Of a stretch of DNA of 64,000 nt, positions 1 through 8,600 are shown piece after piece. The stretch's first letter is position 1. Every line of letters starts with the position of its first letter. The DNA comes from Candidatus Binatia bacterium. GTDB lineage: Bacteria; Desulfobacterota; Binatia; UBA9968; JAJDTQ01. The stretch lies in contig OY762897.2 in the NCBI GenBank assembly GCA_963666515.2, forward strand, positions 2,944,001 to 3,008,000, written 5' to 3'. The notes under the pieces are model-generated. The model was not told the DNA's origin. It saw only the letters and a list, made by a program, of their open reading frames with translations, and ran no database searches. Both the position numbers and the translations under genes were made by a program.

Positions 1-3000
1 TCGGCGTCAATGACATTTCATCGGCGGTGAGGTGCAGTTTGCCCTGCTCGACGGCGCGCAGCTGGAAGCCACTGCTTCTAGTCCACTCCGGAATAAGCCA
101 CTGGCAAGAGTTGATGAGCGGCGACCCCAGCAACCACGGCTCCGCGTGATACACCATGCCGAAAAGAAGGATGCACCGGTGCTTCCGGGCAAAGGGCACC
201 AAGAGCGGTCCAACGTCATCGGGGTGCACCGCTAGTTCTGGGAAGACCAAGAGATCGATTGTCTGGCCGTCGCCACGGGCCATGCTGCGATGCGTGTCCC
301 GCAGTCGTCGCATCTGATTGACCCCCTCGAGTGCTGCTGCAAGATGCGCTCGGTGCCTAAGTCGAAACGAAGGGTCACCACTAAGATCAGGTGCAGTGGC
401 GTAGCGAAGGTAGTCCCCTAAGTCGGGGATCACCGTCTGGACAACGCCGATGCGCAGTGGCCGCCCCCAAGCAGTGGCATGCTCTGGTCGGTATGGAAGG
501 GGGGCAGACTGCTCCAAGAAAAGCGTTCGGCTGTGGGCCCCATACTGCGCACTAAGTGCGTCTAAACGGGACGCAATCGCTCCCCTGATCTCAGTGAGGC
601 TGCGACTGGGAGACATGACACCGGACCCAGGCCACCGGAGAAGCTCGTATAGCAGATCTTCTAAGAATGATGATATCGGGAGCCACGGAGGGCCGAATGC
701 GCTACGTCCCTGAAACGCTGAGTATCTCTGTTGTTCCCAGTGCGAGATGGGACGGGAATAGCGTGGCCCCATATAGCGCTTGGCATTGGTAGCTCCCACA
801 AAGAAATCGGTGGTCCCACGGATCGCGAATCGCAAGAGAGCCCCAATCTGATACCGTTGGCGCTCCTCGGGCGTCTCGCACCACTCAGGTAGTGTGAACA
901 AACGTGCCCCTGTACTTACGGATCTGCGAACCCGGAACGTGGCCGGGTCGATCCACCCGAACCGGTCACGTTGGTTGTCGGACTTGAGTCTGCACTCGAT
1001 CTGCCAAGGTGTGAGGGGCGTTTCGAATGTGTCTTCCGGGAGCCCAAATAGCCAGTGCGCAAAGTACAGGAGGTTCAGTTCGGTAAAGAACGGATTGTTT
1101 TGCAGGCTGGCGAGATCTGGCAGACAAGCGGCGGCATCTGGTGCCCGACGTGGCTTCAACCCCAGCCGCTCGGCCATCTGAGTGAGCGCATTGCCTGCGC
1201 CAAGTCTCGCCGCTTCCCACAACGCAGCGGCTGTGCTCGGGGAGCATGTCTCAACGCGGGACAGAAACTCCGGCGAAACTCCTTGCTGCGCGATGCGGTC
1301 AACCAATCCGTTAAGCGAGAAACCCGTCCGAGCAATGACGAGGAAACTCGATCGCTCATCCAACCCCGCTGGCCAATCGCCGCTCAGGAACTTGGCAAAC
1401 CGCCGATATAGCGCGAGTAACGGGCCACCCTTTGCGCCCAGTTGGGTCACAGTTTCCGGAAACGCTTCTCGCGCTGAGAGATAGAGAAACACCTGCTGCA
1501 TGAGGTACCACGGCAGACGAGAGCTGCTCGATTGGCCATTCACGAGCTGGTTGAAGATGTCTTGAGCCTCTTCGAGTAGTCGCTGGTGGTAGCGGTCTAA
1601 GCGAACGCCCTGCGGTAGACATTCGTCATCCGACACCATCCCCGTCTCGGTCGCCCCTGCTCGGAACAGTTCGGCCAGACAGTACAGGCGAATCTCGCGG
1701 CGGGCTCCCCTGGAACCATCGACCGCCCACCCTGGCTTGAGCACCCGGAGAACTTCATTCAGGAACTGAGGGTCCGGGTACATGTCGAGTGCCACACGCA
1801 GCAGACGCACGTTTGCCGGGTTGGCGGTCCACTCCTCGATGAGCAGTGCGGCGAAGAGCTTGGCTCGCTCGTCGAGCTGGACCTTGGAGAGCACTAGGCT
1901 TTGCTCGCTCCCTTCGTCGTCCGGCTCTTCGTCCGTAGGCGGCACTTCCCGTCCGACGTCCCGGTCGTCGCCCTCCAGCATGGGGCGCAAAGAGCGGAAT
2001 GTTCGCCGGAAACGGCCCGCTGCGAATCGAGCAGCCGTTTCGTCACGCATGTCGGATAGACCCACCAGCAGACCGGTTCTGCCGACTTCCTCAGGCTTGG
2101 TCTCGGTGGAGTACCTCTTCTGAGTGTGGAAAAAGCCCTCGATGGCACCAATCAGCTCGGTGCCGTGGAGCATGTCAAACACGCCGGATACGTCGCTCTG
2201 AATGCGTTTGGCGGCAAGAGACTGCGGCACGAGGAATCGCCGGTCGCGTCCTTCCACCGTCACAGTCGTCTTGGACTGTTCGACCACGAGCCCGGGAGCC
2301 GTTATATCAAGCTGGCGTTGGAGCCAATTGGATATGGCGTCGCGAACTTCACGCTCTGCAAGGCCGGGGTCGGAACGGGGGATCTGGACAACCAATCGGA
2401 AGTCGTCAACGTAATAAGCCGCATCCAGTAGCTTGATGCCTAGGGCTTCGTCAATGACCCGTCCGATCGCATCGCGGAGTCTCGTCTCAAAGTCCTGCAT
2501 CACGACATTCGCGAAGAAGCCTGATGCGACCAGCCCCTGTGGGAGCGCCACGTTCATAAAACCGTCAAGGTCGTGCTCGAGGGAATGGCGGGACGCGCGC
2601 TTCGTGTCCGCCCACCGCCAATCGAAGACACGGCCTGCGAACTCGAAGAACCTTGGATCATCACCGTCTCGTCCGAGTTGCTCGATCTTCTGACGGAGCA
2701 AGTCCGGCTGCACACGGTCGTAGAACTTCGACAGATCGCTCTGAACAATCGCCATCTCGAACTCCGGCGCGTCCGAGTCCACGCTCTCCGCCACAACTCG
2801 TGGGCGACGAAGAAACGTCTGGTAGTCCTGGAAATACTGGCGATACAGCTTGGAGCTACCCCAACGGTGACGAAGTCCGCCGTCCTCGGTATCATCGCAG
2901 ACGAGTCGGTGGCCATAGGCGAGGACACGGCGCCGATTCTCTTCTGAGTCGATCGACAGCCGAGGGTCATTCATCCGAGTTTCGATGCGGTCGGCTAAGC

Positions 3001-3361
3001 AGAGCATGATGGCCGTCGCCACGACTTGGTCCCGCAGCGCTACATGAGCAAGCGGACGGAGCTCCTTCTGGTAATTCTGATTGGCCCGCGGAATCCAATT
3101 GCCACTGTCATCGAAGCACCATCGCTGCGTCTTCGGAGCCGGAACCAGATCAAGGGGCTCGGGCGTCCAGTCGGAATATGTATCGATTGCTGCCCGGATC
3201 TCCGCGAGAAAGGCCGGGATGCGCAAGGTTTGAAAGTCGATGCCGAGCGTATCGGCATACCAACTGTGCGTCCGCAGATAGGAGGAAGTCTTCTTCCACG
3301 CCTGCATAAGTACGCATTCGAGCCGGAGGTCCTCCAGGGATGGGTTGAGGATCTGCTTCAT
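1..3361 (-). CDS. Reverse transcriptase-nitrilase fusion (defence-associated RT, DRT1/UG1-like); 3' end lies beyond the window
   Basis: Translated by hand from ATG at 3361 (MKQILNPSLEDLRLECVLMQAWKKTSSYLRTHSWYADTL) with no stop down to position 2 (1120 codons). RT motifs: SDLSKFYDRV (2711-2740), LPQGLVASGFFAN (2507-2545), YYVDD (2402-2416), GLVVEQSKT. C-terminal nitrilase motifs: LRIGVVQ, DLLVFPELAVHP (221-256, catalytic Glu), QGKLHLTADE (17-46, catalytic Lys). Absent from the ORF track. Confidence 0.92.
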   Translation of the reverse strand, partial: MKQILNPSLEDLRLECVLMQAWKKTSSYLRTHSWYADTLGIDFQTLRIPAFLAEIRAAIDTYSDWTPEPLDLVPAPKTQRWCFDDSGNWIPRANQNYQKELRPLAHVALRDQVVATAIMLCLADRIETRMNDPRLSIDSEENRRRVLAYGHRLVCDDTEDGGLRHRWGSSKLYRQYFQDYQTFLRRPRVVAESVDSDAPEFEMAIVQSDLSKFYDRVQPDLLRQKIEQLGRDGDDPRFFEFAGRVFDWRWADTKRASRHSLEHDLDGFMNVALPQGLVASGFFANVVMQDFETRLRDAIGRVIDEALGIKLLDAAYYVDDFRLVVQIPRSDPGLAEREVRDAISNWLQRQLDITAPGLVVEQSKTTVTVEGRDRRFLVPQSLAAKRIQSDVSGVFDMLHGTELIGAIEGFFHTQKRYSTETKPEEVGRTGLLVGLSDMRDETAARFAAGRFRRTFRSLRPMLEGDDRDVGREVPPTDEEPDDEGSEQSLVLSKVQLDERAKLFAALLIEEWTANPANVRLLRVALDMYPDPQFLNEVLRVLKPGWAVDGSRGARREIRLYCLAELFRAGATETGMVSDDECLPQGVRLDRYHQRLLEEAQDIFNQLVNGQSSSSRLPWYLMQQVFLYLSAREAFPETVTQLGAKGGPLLALYRRFAKFLSGDWPAGLDERSSFLVIARTGFSLNGLVDRIAQQGVSPEFLSRVETCSPSTAAALWEAARLGAGNALTQMAERLGLKPRRAPDAAACLPDLASLQNNPFFTELNLLYFAHWLFGLPEDTFETPLTPWQIECRLKSDNQRDRFGWIDPATFRVRRSVSTGARLFTLPEWCETPEERQRYQIGALLRFAIRGTTDFFVGATNAKRYMGPRYSRPISHWEQQRYSAFQGRSAFGPPWLPISSFLEDLLYELLRWPGSGVMSPSRSLTEIRGAIASRLDALSAQYGAHSRTLFLEQSAPLPYRPEHATAWGRPLRIGVVQTVIPDLGDYLRYATAPDLSGDPSFRLRHRAHLAAALEGVNQMRRLRDTHRSMARGDGQTIDLLVFPELAVHPDDVGPLLVPFARKHRCILLFGMVYHAEPWLLGSPLINSCQWLIPEWTRSSGFQLRAVEQGKLHLTADEMSLTP

Positions 3362-3383
3362 TCTCGGTTCCTGACGCGGAAAC

Positions 3384-4640
3384 TCATGCCGTTCCCCCCT
3401 CGCCTTGTTCCAGCAGCGCCGTCACGCGGCGGTCTCCCGTCAAGAGGTCCTGCATAAGGCCGACCTTTATTGACCTGAGTTTGTAGAGGTGTTCCCGGTA
3501 GGCATTGAGGATCTCCCTCACAGCCGAGATGCGAACCGCAATCGCCGTCTGTTCATCCAAGTTCCTCGGGAACGCGGCAGGGATCGAACGAAGATTCGTT
3601 GGATTGATGTTCACTTGCTGAACTGCGGGCGTGGCCTGTCGGCGCATAGCGATCTGAATTCGTTCCCAGTTCAGCCAGAAATTAAGCATCTCGGGCAACA
3701 GTTTGTCCGGGTGCGGGTTCAGCCGCACGAGGTACGACGCGAAGGTTGTGCTCTCGATCTGCCCTCTCCAGATACCGGTTCGACCGACATGCTCCCAGCT
3801 ATTGGTTCGATTGAAGAGCACATCCCCATCTCTCAGCCATAAATGCTTGGGCACCGGGCCATCAGTGAACTTGAGGTCAGATAGTTCGGCTTCACCATCG
3901 AGCAGATTGTTCATGCGCAACACGGGATAACCCGATTCTCCGAGCGATGTTGAAATCCCATACTCCGCCGAAGGAACAAACACCGCCAAGGATGCACTTT
4001 CCCACTCCATCGGGATCCGTCCGAGCGGGGAGTCTTTGAACTTGTGGGTCTGTTCGGAGCGGAGGTTGCCGTGCTCGTCGATGCCGCGGGTGAGCAGATC
4101 CTGTACCAGGCCGGTCTTGATGCGCTGCTGCTTGACGATGAGCGCCTCGGTCTCCTCGATTGCCCGATCCATCGTCGAAAGCACCTCAGAGATTTTGGCT
4201 TGCTCGGCCTTTTCCTTCGGGTGCAGGACCGGCCACTGTTTCAATTCCGAAGAGTTGATCGCCTCAAACGTGGAACCCTGTGAAGCGAGCCTGAATCTTG
4301 GCTCCTGGAAGACCAGAAAGTGCTCAAGAAAGTCCTGAGTTACTCGCGTTCCTTTCAACGCGGCCAAGCCGCGACCAATCACATAATCACGGTTGGCGAC
4401 ATTCAGACGTCCGACGGGCGCGCGAACGCTGAGTAGGATCGATCCAGCACACCCAATCTTTTTGCTGTGGCTGCAATAGATGGTATGCATGGGATGCCGG
4501 CCCTGAAACTCCGCGCACCCTTGTAGGAATGGAAGTCCGACTTCCTCCTCAGAGTAGTACTTGGAATCAGGTGACTGGCCCATGACGACTTGGGCGACCT
4601 CCGCGAGCGGTTTGATGTGCCAGCCATCCGGAAGCGTCAT
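3384..4640 (-). CDS. hsdS: Type I restriction-modification specificity subunit
   Basis: Two TRD-plus-helix repeats (LPDGW.../IPMEW...; EQAKISEVL...[10 protein letters not shown] and EQTAIA...GLMQDLLTG); overlaps the hsdM stop. Confidence 0.95.
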
Positions 4641-7324
4641 ACCAGGTACCCCAATCCCGTCAGGGAACCGCCCATCGTGGCCAGCGTGGTCGCTCGATCA
4701 CTTTCCAATTTGTCCGCGGAGATGGCGTACTTCTCCCATAGGCTCTCGACGGCTCGCACGAGCACCCGCTTCTCCGCATTGAGGTAGCGGTCCAGCTCCG
4801 TGCGGGCGATGTCATAGATCTTCTTCAGGATCAGGCGGCGGGCGTCGGTCTCACTGATCTGGCCGCCAATCGCCTTGAGGACCGTATCAGCCTGGGCCAT
4901 GCGGGCGTTCAGTGCCTCCTTGTCCTTGCCCAGCGCGGTGATGGTCTTCTTGTCGGCCTTCTTCTGGGGGTCCAGCCCGGCGAGACGGGCATCGGCCTGC
5001 GCGATCAGCGTCTGTGTCTCGGCCTTGAAGTCGTCTGCCCCGAGGCGCTTGAGTTCGAGCTTGAACTCAAGCACTGCGGCCTTTTCCTTGAGTGTCCCCC
5101 TAACGTCCTTGATGCGCTTCTCGATCGCCTTGATGGCCTTGTCCTGGTCCGTAAGGTTCTTGAGCTCCTTTCTTGCGGAGGCGCCGCTGGTGCTTTTCAG
5201 GTCGTCGATGAGCGCCTTGAGAGTCTTCTTGATTGCGGCTGCGGTGACCTTCTCGTCCTCGTCGAGCTCGTAGCCGCTGACCTCCTGGGCCGTCTCGACG
5301 GCCTCGGACAGCTCGCCTTGGGCTTCGGCGATGGTCGCCTCCAGCGCCTCAATGGCGTCGGCCTCGGCCTGGAAATATTCGGCGATGAGGTACTCATCGG
5401 GGATGAGGGTATGGTGCCAGCCCGTGGAGACGATAGTCTTGAGGTCGTAGCGGATTTGCTTCCACCAGTTGACGAAGACGCCGGCACTCTTGAACTCGTC
5501 GAGCACGCCCAGCGGCACGAGCTTGGCCTTGAGGGTGGTGAGCAGCTCGTGGCGGACTTCGGGCATTTTCTTGCCGCCGTTGCCCGCATGCTGGAGCTGG
5601 GCGAAGTCGTCTCTGGCAACCGTCCACCAGGATTCGAGGGCACCGTGGTGCCGGGTGAGAGTGCCCAGCAGTGCCGGGGCCGCCTCGAGCGTGGCCCTGA
5701 TGGCGGGCCCAGCGTCGACGGACTCGCGAAAGGCGAGGTAGGCGGGACGCTCAGGCTCGAAGAGTGAATCCAGGTTTACGCCGAACTTGGCGAAGTCGTC
5801 CGTGAGCGTAGCGACCTCCGCCTCGGGGATTCCGCCGATGAGGTGCGCCTGGACATCCTCCGGCTCGGGGTCGGGCGTGTTGTCCACGTAGCGACGGATG
5901 TTGAGGTTGTAGTCGTGGGTGTCCACGATCTCGGACTTGGGCACGAGGCGCGAGTACTTGGACAGTTCGCGCTTGTGGGTGAAGACGAAATCTATCTTTT
6001 CGATGTCCTCGGGGCGAAGCCGGTTCTGGTTCTTGCCCTCTGCGTATTCGCGATCGGCGTTGATGAAGAGGACCTTGTCCTTGAGCGCGTCGGGCTTGCT
6101 CTTGTTGCAGACCAGCACGCAGGCGGGAATGCCCGTGCCGTAGAAGAGGCCGGGCGGCAGGCTGACAATGGCCTCGATGCAATCGTCATTGATGAAAAGC
6201 TCGCGGATGAGCTTTTCCTTACCGCCACGGAACAGGACCCCGTGCGGCATGATCGTCGCCATCCGGCCGTTGGACTTGAGGCTGGCGAGCATGTGCTGGA
6301 CGAACATGAGGTCCGCCTTCTTGCCGGACTCCGGGCACCACTCGCGGAAGCGGCTGGTGAACTTCATGTCGGCGCGGCTGTAGTTCTGCGAGAACGGCGG
6401 GTTGGCGAGCACACGGTCGAACTTGCGGATCTGCCCGTTGTCGAGGATGAGCGGGTTCTCCAGCGTGTCGTCGTTCTCGATCGTGGATCGGGTGATGTTG
6501 TGGAGGATCATGTTCATGATGCAGATCGACCAGACCGTGCCGTTGGAGTCCTGGCCGTAGAGGGCGAGGTCGTCAGCGTTCTGGCCCTGTTCTTCCACGT
6601 ACTGGTGGGACTGAATGAGGAAGCCGCCGGAGCCGACCGTGGGGTCGTAGATGGTATTGCCGGCCTCCGGCTGAGTGAGTTGGACGAGCAGGCGGACGAC
6701 CTCGCCAGGAGTATAGAACTCACCGCCCTTCTTACCAGCACTGTCAGCGAAGAACTTGATGAGGTACTCGTAGGCGGCACCGAGCAGGTCGGGAAACTCG
6801 AAGTTATCGTTGACGAGGACGAACCTGGGCTGGCTGAAGTGGTCGAGCAGGTCTTTCCAGTTCTGGTCCGGGATCTTGGTCTTGCCCTTCACCGCATTGA
6901 AGTCGATGTTGTTCTTCAACACCCCGGCGAGCGCATCGTTCTCGTCTTCAATCGCAGCGATGGCCTTGTTGAGCATGTTGCCGATGTCGTGCTTTAAGTC
7001 CTTCACGGCCGGCACGAGAGCGCCGTTGTCGTCCTTCCAGGGCTCGTGCCAGCGGGCTCTGACGGGGACAAAGAAAGTCTCGCCGTAGGACGTCTTGTCT
7101 TCGAGCAACTCGGCGACAAGTTGCGGCTGGTCTTTGAGGTGTGCGAAGGTTTTCGTGCGGAGCTGCTCGCGTTTGCGGTCGAACTCGTCGGAAAGCCGCT
7201 TCAGGAACAGCATGCCGAAGATGAACTCCTTGAATTCCGAGGCGTCCATCTTGCCACGCAGGATGTCGGCGGCCTTCAGGAGGAAGGATTCGAGCTGGGT
7301 GAGGGTGATTTTCTCTTGTTTCAT
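4637..7324 (-). CDS. hsdM: Type I R-M N6-adenine methyltransferase subunit, long form with coiled-coil C-terminal extension
   Basis: [17 protein letters not shown]-terminus, [17 protein letters not shown] (SAM binding), NPPF catalytic motif; 895 aa. Confidence 0.97.
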
Positions 7325-7530: not shown

Positions 7531-7588
7531 TGGTGGAGGCGAGGGGAATCGAACCCCCGTCCGAAGGCTTTCCGCCAGAAGTGACTAC
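7531..7588 (-). repeat. att-like duplicate of the tmRNA 3' end (58-bp direct repeat of 8251-8308)
   Basis: tggtggaggcg(a/g)ggggaatcgaacccccgtccgaaggctttccgccagaagtgactac occurs at 7531 and 8251 with one mismatch. Confidence 0.95.
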
Positions 7589-7594
7589 GTGGGT

Positions 7595-7876
7595 TTACTG
7601 GGTGCGCGCTGTCCGTGGCACACTATGCGTCGCCATTGACTGGCCACTTTCTGAAATCGGCTGCTGTTGGTTCTGCGAAGCGGGAAACGGCAGACCGTCT
7701 TCTTTCAAGACTTCAAGCCAAGCGCATACGGCGATTCGTATCTCGTGGAGCGCTTCTTCTGGCGTATCGCCGTAGGCTGACAAATCGGGCACTTCGACAC
7801 ATCCTGCCTCAAAGCCCTCCGACTCGTCGCACTTTTTCCACCGATACGTGTAAGGCGGCAAATCGTGAACATCCAT
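7595..7876 (-). CDS. hicB: HicB family antitoxin (short form)
   Basis: GGAGG then ATG at 7876 (alternative start 7882); VEVPDLSAYGDTPEEALHEIRIAVCAWLEVLKEDGLPFP matches the HicB N-domain; follows hicA. Confidence 0.85.
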   Translation of the reverse strand: MDVHDLPPYTYRWKKCDESEGFEAGCVEVPDLSAYGDTPEEALHEIRIAVCAWLEVLKEDGLPFPASQNQQQPISESGQSMATHSVPRTARTQ

Positions 7877-7893
7877 GGCCATGCCTCCCCAAT

Positions 7894-8160
7894 CTAAATT
7901 AAACCCATGTACCTCGCCCGTTTCAACACCTCTTTGACTTGCTCCGGCTTCGCCTTTCCGGTCTTCAAGCGTTGCAGATTGAGCGGGTGCGGGTAAACGT
8001 CCTTCGCCCCTGTCGCCAGCGGATGGGTGAAAATATGGTGGCTGCCTTTGCGGTTCCGAAGCTTCCAGCCAAGTTGCTCCACGAGTTTCAGCAAGTCGTT
8101 GAAAGGGCAATTCGATGGAGAATTCTCCGCGTTTTCCAGCAGTTTCTTGCCCACTGCCAT
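7894..8160 (-). CDS. hicA: HicA family mRNA interferase toxin
   Basis: 88 aa, basic; LLKLVEQLGWKLRNRKGSHHIFTHP contains the GSH motif. Confidence 0.88.
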   Translation of the reverse strand: MAVGKKLLENAENSPSNCPFNDLLKLVEQLGWKLRNRKGSHHIFTHPLATGAKDVYPHPLNLQRLKTGKAKPEQVKEVLKRARYMGLI

Positions 8161-8250: not shown

Positions 8251-8600
8251 TGGTGGAGGCGGGGGGAATCGAACCCCCGTCCGAAGGCTTTCCGCCAGAA
8301 GTGACTACATGCTTAGTCGCCGTTTGAGTCTCGCCGCTCAAGCTCCCGACGACAGGGGCGTGAGCGGCCAGCCGGTTTGAATCTCGACCTCAACCCCTCC
8401 GGCAGGAGAATCGGTCCATCCCGCTGAATGACGCCTTGTCCGGCCCCGCGGGAGAAGGCCGGCAAGACGCTGGCTGTCTAAGCAGCCAGAGCGTACTCTT
8501 GTTCGTCTGCAGTTACTTGCAGTCCTGCGTTTTTAACGGGGCCGCAGGACCCCGGCATGCCACTTTGACTTCCCACCCCCGTCGAACCCATATCGCCCCC
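8251..8600 (-). ncRNA. ssrA: tmRNA
   Basis: 5' GGGGGCGA...GGTTCGAC; 3' T-arm GGTTCGATTCC...CTCCACCA; tag ORF at 8478-8510 encodes ADEQEYALAA*; directly downstream of smpB. Confidence 0.97.

Follow-up and report, generated by a model that had tools for sequence, protein, structure and literature searches.

Introduction

Defense-associated reverse transcriptase type 1 (DRT1) corresponds, in the account of Mestre et al., to UG1, a class 3 UG/Abi reverse transcriptase (RT) of 1200–1300 aa. Its biochemistry dates from 2026. According to the report deposited as PMC13275509, DRT1 makes short A-rich single-stranded DNA (ssDNA) by template-free, protein-primed synthesis without a noncoding RNA (ncRNA); the enzyme studied there primes on S402, and its dormant filaments are stacked tetramers. 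The same report describes that defense requires both catalytic sites, that mutation of D324/D325 or C1116 abolishes it, that DRT1 acts by abortive infection, with T4 Dda being necessary, not sufficient, and that DRT1 alone protects Escherichia coli. About 18% of drt1 genes are accompanied there by drt1b, which encodes a membrane partner. In this study, we analyzed a DRT1 gene, drt1a, that is nested in a type I restriction-modification (R-M) operon of a Candidatus Binatia bacterium (GenBank assembly GCA_963666515.2). The stretch of DNA analyzed, hereafter called the window, comprises 64,000 nucleotides (nt) of contig OY762897.2 (positions 2,944,001 to 3,008,000 of the forward strand), and the operon extends past its left end.

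It is generally known that defense genes can be embedded in R-M operons. The 2024 preprint of Payne et al., which speaks of "guilt by embedding", describes defense genes embedded in Hma, BREX, DISARM and type I R-M operons. PrrC, the one embedded case known to have a worked-out guard logic, is reported there to be almost exclusively embedded in type I R-M operons and to be released once Stp inactivates EcoprrI. In the main text of the preprint, DRT type III appears once as an embedded system, and DRT1 is not mentioned. Likewise, none of the papers searched, Mestre et al. and the UG5 paper among them, describes R-M nesting of DRT1/UG1 in its main text. Neither the gene nor this type of arrangement is new in itself; a clade-wide nesting of DRT1 coupled to hsdS appears not to have been described in the papers searched.

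Results

Gene order and junctions of the operon

Positions 1 to 7324 of the window consist of three genes, all on the minus strand. hsdM (4637–7324) encodes a type I R-M methyltransferase of 895 aa (Pfam N6_Mtase, 1.3e-100; HsdM_N, 3.3e-28; PADLOC MTase_I, 2.5e-277), and hsdS (3384–4640) encodes a specificity subunit of 418 aa (Methylase_S, 1.4e-13; PADLOC Specificity_I, 5.7e-51, over residues 3–406). They are followed by the first 1120 of the 1285 codons of drt1a (1–3361), a DRT1/UG1 RT-nitrilase gene assigned by PADLOC Drt1a. hsdM and hsdS overlap by 4 nt (ATGA), with the hsdS ATG at 4640–4638 and the hsdM TGA at 4639–4637. Because the hsdS stop codon lies at 3386–3384 and the drt1a ATG at 3361, the two genes are separated by exactly 22 nt (3362–3383, minus strand), and this spacer carries an AGGA ribosome-binding motif 7 nt ahead of the ATG. 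The original prediction, which was made from the letters of the window, had described the overlap and the 22-nt gap on the same strand, and reading of the sequence confirmed both.

That prediction had also advised extending the sequence leftward. The extension located the drt1a stop codon 496 nt outside the window and hsdR just left of it, starting 16 nt after the drt1a stop with AGGA in the gap; no gene lies between drt1a and hsdR. The unit ends with a YgjP-like metallopeptidase gene (8.3e-55), giving the five-gene same-strand order hsdM-hsdS-drt1a-hsdR-ygjP, in which the three genes of a type I R-M unit are all present together. It had been suspected that hsdR might be missing; the gene is there, and is merely broken by an insertion sequence (IS), as detailed below. 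The proposed likeness in position to prrC was borne out, in that drt1a lies between hsdS and hsdR on the same strand. The EcoprrI operon has the gene order hsdM-hsdS-prrC-hsdR.

On the coding strand, no terminator-like site was found from hsdM to the 3' part of ygjP, and an Rfam search of the 18-kb stretch returned only the transfer-messenger RNA (tmRNA) above threshold. No sigma-70-type promoter was found on the coding strand upstream of hsdM, in a scan that was limited to this promoter type and says little. From this anatomy, we infer that drt1a lacks its own promoter and shares a transcript with hsdS, to which it is probably also coupled in translation. The remark that the junction leaves no room for an ncRNA or a terminator agrees with the 22-nt gap and the lack of a terminator-like site, but it does not pose a puzzle: published DRT1 needs no ncRNA, so that the lack of room for one is expected.

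The C-terminal ~395 aa of HsdM (residues ~500–895; 4640–5824 in the window) had no Pfam match and are rich in predicted helices. This extension is common to a family of R-M systems with a long HsdM (~870–940 aa); of 401 genomes sampled from the phylum, 11 carried this family, the window's own genome included.

Drt1a is predicted to be catalytically competent

Read in the whole genome, the full drt1a gene (L001:1004–4861, minus strand) encodes 1285 aa. The PADLOC Drt1a profile (PDLC03745) matched residues 4–1277 on profile positions 5–1175 of 1176 (E = 0, 1106 bits), so that the assignment to DRT1 made in the original prediction holds end to end; the best RT model other than Drt1a was RT_UG5-nitrilase (2.1e-23). 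Only RT and nitrilase models matched the protein, and no homology was seen with PrrC/RloC (ABC-ATPase plus anticodon nuclease). Its sole solved relative is PDB 9YFD chain A, titled "Defense-associated reverse transcriptase 1" (E = 2e-109), although just three stretches of Drt1a were aligned with it by phmmer.

The YVDD aspartates D319/D320 (~2407–2402 in the window) aligned with D324/D325 of 9YFD, and the nitrilase Cys1152 (CYDATD motif, outside the window) aligned with C1116. Glu1042 (PEL motif, 238–236) and Lys1108 (QGK motif, 40–38) are presumably, as in the nitrilase superfamily in general, the catalytic pair of the nitrilase domain. A candidate priming residue, Ser392 (SG motif, 2188–2186), stands at the expected distance from YVDD; because the priming loop itself failed to align with 9YFD, its equivalence to Ser402 is only inferred. 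YVDD, Glu1042, Lys1108, Cys1152 and Ser392 were invariant in 20 of 20 sequences when Drt1a was aligned with 19 diverse family members. No drt1b partner gene was found at the locus. These sequence features indicate that drt1a encodes a complete, catalytically competent DRT1 (UG1) RT-nitrilase. The family is large: 652 clusters (50% identity) matched at E ≤ 0.001, and 1510 proteins matched Drt1a at E ≤ 1e-10 among the 8000 candidates scored.

hsdR is split by an IS256-family element

The reading frame of hsdR is not intact, since a 1389-bp element splits the gene just past the DEAH box. The N-terminal part runs 433 residues to the break (HSDR_N, 4.3e-39; SWI2_SNF2 profile positions 1–139), and the C-terminal part of 633 residues continues with SWI2_SNF2 positions 131–220, T1R_D3 and T1RH-like_C. 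The element (L002:14800–16188, 1.8–3.2 kb left of the window) belongs to the IS256 family and carries a Mutator-family transposase gene (Transposase_mut, 8.1e-71) on the strand opposite to hsdR. Its ends are 26-nt inverted repeats that are 81% complementary, and an 8-bp target duplication, CTTGTACT, flanks it on both sides. Both hsdR pieces carry the QYK codons of the duplicated octamer, the first piece at its end and the second at its start. IS256-family elements typically duplicate 8–9 bp of their target. The genome contains three full copies of the element at 100% identity, one partial copy at 94% and two short fragments; the three identical full copies make the element look active. A 369-aa frame in phase with the N-terminal part was considered as an intein or in-frame insert and rejected, because it is the Pro/Arg/His-rich reverse of a high-GC gene and the real gene is the transposase on the other strand.

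In eight relatives, hsdR is contiguous across the insertion point. Contigs from public sequencing runs, a comparison in which regions without cover carry no meaning, contained a joint (4791–6189) that skips exactly the element and one repeat copy; it was present in three data sets, two of DNA and one from an RNA library. Because of the duplication, the contiguous relatives and the IS-free joints, we judge that hsdR was whole until recently and that the insertion is recent. Since hsdR is split, only methylation and DRT1 are likely to be active in this strain. The RNA-library run X20 also yielded contigs that match stretches of ygjP, hsdR, drt1a and hsdM at 90–97%; these derive from a relative and are no evidence of transcription.

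Placement after hsdS recurs in one Drt1a clade

The original prediction had proposed counting how often homologues sit directly after hsdS. We sampled 76 drt1a loci from species-representative genomes and 61 from metagenomes, and sought Hsd and YgjP genes with profiles that were built from the window's proteins and refined by one iteration. A Drt1a tree of 73 rows, from which L019, L023, L047 and L077 were excluded (longest piece <900 aa), contained two well-supported clades: the window's clade, termed clade A, with 26 rows, and a sister clade with 47. Eighteen clade A rows had the "slot" arrangement, one was near hsd genes in another order and seven had no hsd genes, whereas the sister clade had no slot rows, and four of its rows were close to hsd genes arranged otherwise. 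The slot label required 4 changes on the tree against a mean of 16.2 after shuffling, and none of 500 shuffles was as low, although relatedness among loci inflates this figure.

The counts that follow apply flank requirements after near-identical loci were dropped. Among the 27 clade A genome loci, which are at least 47% identical to the window's Drt1a, hsdS was directly upstream in 14 of 25, hsdR downstream in 17 of the 24 with enough downstream sequence, both in 14 of 22, and any same-strand hsd gene was present in 20 of 27. The corresponding values for the 49 genome loci of the sister clade were 0/43, 0/42, 0/38 and 2/49. The placement therefore recurs, and does so in one clade. The 32 clade A metagenome loci gave 10/23 for hsdS upstream, 6/14 for hsdR downstream, 4/11 for both and 18/32 for any same-strand hsd gene, versus 0/5, 0/4, 0/2 and 0/15 in the 15 other metagenome loci.

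The spacing was surveyed in 25 loci, one of which gave no result. In the 14 genome loci with hsdS upstream, the hsdS-drt1a gap was 22 nt in six, 34 nt in one and 17 nt in one, and six had an ATGA overlap. The 22-nt spacing recurred with similar spacer sequence in L003, L004, L006, L008, L011 and L019, and tight coupling to hsdS was kept in both R-M groups. By record titles, the hosts of slot loci belong to nine phyla. The window's own subclade spans records from Gemmatimonadota, Alphaproteobacteria, Pseudomonadales and Planctomycetota, and its members share 77–91% identity in HsdM, 78–94% in HsdR and 73–88% in Drt1a; HsdS is variable, as expected for specificity subunits. In other slot loci, the Hsd proteins are only 26–38% identical to those of the window and Drt1a is 48–56% identical. 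One clade A locus (L107:4637–7951) has drt1a after hsdM-hsdS, an EcoEI-type hsdR and an HNH gene, all of which precede it.

The Drt1a tree was also examined for incongruence with the R-M family. FastTree grouped L009 and L010 with loci of the other R-M group, and a better model left the deep forks open; the approximately unbiased test gave a borderline p of 0.042 for a group that had been named after a tree was seen.

Other cargo in the hsdS-hsdR slot

Related operons carry, in the same slot and beside or instead of drt1a, genes for a GmrSD-like type IV enzyme, RhuM (PDC-S05), DUF3800, Schlafen/AlbA_2-HATPase_c_4, SoFic/Fic, YhcG (PDC-S02) and an AAA/SMC-like ATPase. Nine loci with the window-type HsdM were fetched from the sampled genomes of the phylum, and seven were evaluable: the slot was empty in four (hsdM-hsdS-hsdR-ygjP), held other cargo in two, and was preceded by an interrupted hsdS in one, with drt1a in none. 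The cargo of the two operons was YhcG, Fic, a fourth gene with only weak Pfam matches, or a Schlafen-type gene. The interrupted hsdS contains an opposite-strand open reading frame (L151:4029–7397) of 1123 aa without a Pfam match.

Clade A drt1a also occurs without hsd genes, namely after DrmABC (L094/L095), a type III R-M unit (L087) and SspH (L048). Sister-clade drt1a genes neighbor a type IIG enzyme plus SNF2 helicase, DrmMI, HmaB/HmaC or Ssp genes, often followed by PDC-S68. These surroundings suggest that Drt1a generally tends to nest in methylation- or helicase-based defense operons, with clade A specialized for type I. The embedded clade showed no clade-specific docking domain or long insertion, only indels of 4–6 residues.

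Two further features were seen around drt1a. A RecD-like protein of ~1240–1325 aa is encoded on the same strand directly after drt1a in L044, L030, L033, L037, L041 and L048, which belong to the sister clade and in part to clade A; the copy in L044 matches PADLOC PDC-S68 (E = 0). It may be a recurrent partner of Drt1a. Between drt1a and a GmrSD-like gene, three close relatives (L003:13972–14343, L006:13842–14219 and L008:13762–14144) carry an HsdR-N-like fragment of ~100–125 aa that precedes the full hsdR. This fragment resembles a scar that would be left if cargo were exchanged through recombination at the 5' end of hsdR.

The operon lies in a genomic island beside the tmRNA gene

The operon is part of an island of ~13.4 kb with a G+C content of 52–63%, versus 66–69% in both flanks. 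The tmRNA gene ssrA (8251–8600, minus strand; ARAGORN; Rfam RF00023, 209 bits) faces the island with its 3' end. A 61-nt copy of that end (7531–7591, minus strand), 97% identical to 8251–8311, forms an att-like repeat 205 nt upstream of hsdM and 720 nt from the tmRNA; a 25-nt pattern search for the tmRNA end gave two matches and none in shuffled sequences. The order on the hsdM side is tmRNA-end copy, hicAB islet, tmRNA and smpB, while msrA abuts the other side, next to ygjP.

Because of the low G+C content, the tmRNA neighborhood and the rarity of Drt1a in relatives, the island is best read as recently acquired by horizontal transfer, at what is a classic site of integration. Of the 60 relatives compared, 27 belong to the same genus; Drt1a was found in only four, all of that genus, and their Drt1a belongs to the other clade and is 44% identical. 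No integrase was seen within the island, and neither a search allowing up to 3 mismatches in 25 nt nor a repeat search revealed another copy of the tmRNA 3' end at the ygjP end.

The two tmRNA-end repeats bracket a small toxin-antitoxin islet (7595–8160, minus strand) with hicA (7894–8160; HicA_toxin, 2.8e-09) and a HicB-like gene (HicB_lk_antitox, 0.0057, a weak match), and the R-M/DRT1 island begins right past the copy. This arrangement suggests tandem insertions at ssrA. One contig each in public runs X2 and X3 showed a joint (2088–15531 of L079) leading from msrA straight to the tmRNA-end copy. Such a joint would drop the whole 13,442-bp island, and with sides of just 28–29 letters it is a weak hint.

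Discussion

We consider it likely that Drt1a of this locus is an autonomous abortive-infection module, carried as cargo in the variable slot of a type I R-M operon and both transcribed and transferred together with it. By analogy with published DRT1, Drt1a would prime template-free DNA synthesis on its own serine, the resulting short A-rich ssDNA adduct would keep nitrilase filaments dormant, and phage infection would release the filaments, leading to abortive infection. Restriction would serve as the first line and DRT1 as the second. If drt1a is transcribed with hsdS, restriction and DRT1 would be expressed and transferred together. Drt1a would act alone, with no need for the R-M proteins.

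Several observations weigh against this reading. hsdS lies immediately upstream of drt1a in 14 loci, also in type I families whose Hsd proteins are only 26–38% identical to those of the window; the association of clade A is tighter than a shared defense-island neighborhood and could reflect selection for joint function. L009 and L010 share the R-M family of the window (HsdM, 77–78%), and their Drt1a is just 55–56% identical, which suggests that one partner was exchanged while the slot was kept. The HsdR profile missed the EcoEI-type HsdR of L107, so that the "no hsd" counts are upper bounds and loci scored as lacking hsdR may hide other type I families. Finally, the DRT1 mechanism is borrowed from a homologue that is alignable over part of its length.

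An unlikely alternative is a PrrC-like guard, in which clade A Drt1a is silenced by the R-M complex, or senses anti-restriction factors, and fires when restriction is disabled. The gene occupies the same slot as prrC, and its position directly after hsdS (−4 to +34 nt) is clade-wide, across R-M families and hosts labelled as nine phyla. However, seven of the 26 clade A tree rows have no hsd genes nearby, and others adjoin DISARM, type III R-M or Ssp genes; the same R-M family exists as an operon without drt1a, and the embedded clade shows neither an additional domain nor a long insertion. Published DRT1 acts alone, and here an intact drt1a stands beside a broken hsdR, though the insertion is recent. 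In its mechanistic form, this alternative, to which we likewise give a low probability, would make one DRT1 branch a PrrC-like guard whose dormant ssDNA-adduct filament is set free once the R-M complex comes under attack from phage anti-restriction factors. Synthesis of Drt1a would keep pace with that of HsdS. Acidic DNA mimics such as Ocr or ArdA could, for example, compete with the adduct for binding in the filament's basic groove, and the operon would switch from restriction to abortive infection.

It is rather improbable that drt1a hitch-hikes without benefit, having entered an R-M operon once, so that the pattern reflects only common descent from a single mobile cassette. Loci that are related do not count as independent cases, and the Hsd proteins (77–94%) and Drt1a (73–88%) of the window's subclade are similarly conserved, which suggests a cassette that moves as one piece between phyla. 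Yet the slot association extends to type I families only 26–38% identical, tight coupling to hsdS is seen in both R-M groups, and the catalytic residues are invariant, arguing for maintained function. The idea in the original prediction that an M2S methylase is paired here with the RT-nitrilase as its effector, in place of HsdR, would fit the disrupted hsdR of this strain, where M2S and Drt1a are the sole intact parts, but it is hardly credible and falls because hsdR is present, being full length save for a clean, recent IS insertion, seen IS-free at joints in public runs, and kept downstream of drt1a in most clade A genome loci.

The DRT1 clade described here, in which roughly every second locus whose upstream flank could be read has drt1a directly after hsdS, in distant hosts and different type I families, provides a natural test case for whether nesting means linked transfer and expression only or cross-talk between restriction and abortive infection. 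A guard role, if true, would give DRT1 a defined trigger class. If drt1a is cargo only, the locus would still illustrate clearly how defense genes are exchanged at the hsdS-hsdR slot. The present strain adds a case in which an IS element appears to have removed restriction and left methylation and DRT1.

Compared with the DRT1 represented by 9YFD, the protein described here has the same order of RT, helical-repeat and nitrilase regions and falls in the same size class (1285 aa versus 1229 aa), its YVDD and nitrilase Cys are aligned with those of 9YFD, and the loop that follows its RT domain contains an invariant Ser, a candidate equivalent of S402. As at most drt1 loci, drt1b is absent. In contrast to that system, the window's Drt1a belongs to a distinct clade and is nested in a type I R-M operon without a promoter region of its own.

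With PrrC in EcoprrI, the locus shares the same-strand slot between hsdS and hsdR and the placement of a predicted abortive-infection effector behind restriction. The two proteins are unrelated, PrrC being an ABC-ATPase anticodon nuclease and Drt1a an RT-nitrilase. For PrrC, experiments have shown masking by the R-M enzyme; a comparable masking of Drt1a is hypothetical. Clade A Drt1a also occurs without hsd genes. The locus resembles the embedded genes described by Payne et al. in that a defense gene lies inside a multi-gene methylation-based system, and related operons carry typical embedded families, including PDC-S02/YhcG, PDC-S05/RhuM, SoFic and GmrSD-like genes. It differs from them in that a whole DRT1 clade is mostly embedded, and is so directly after hsdS.

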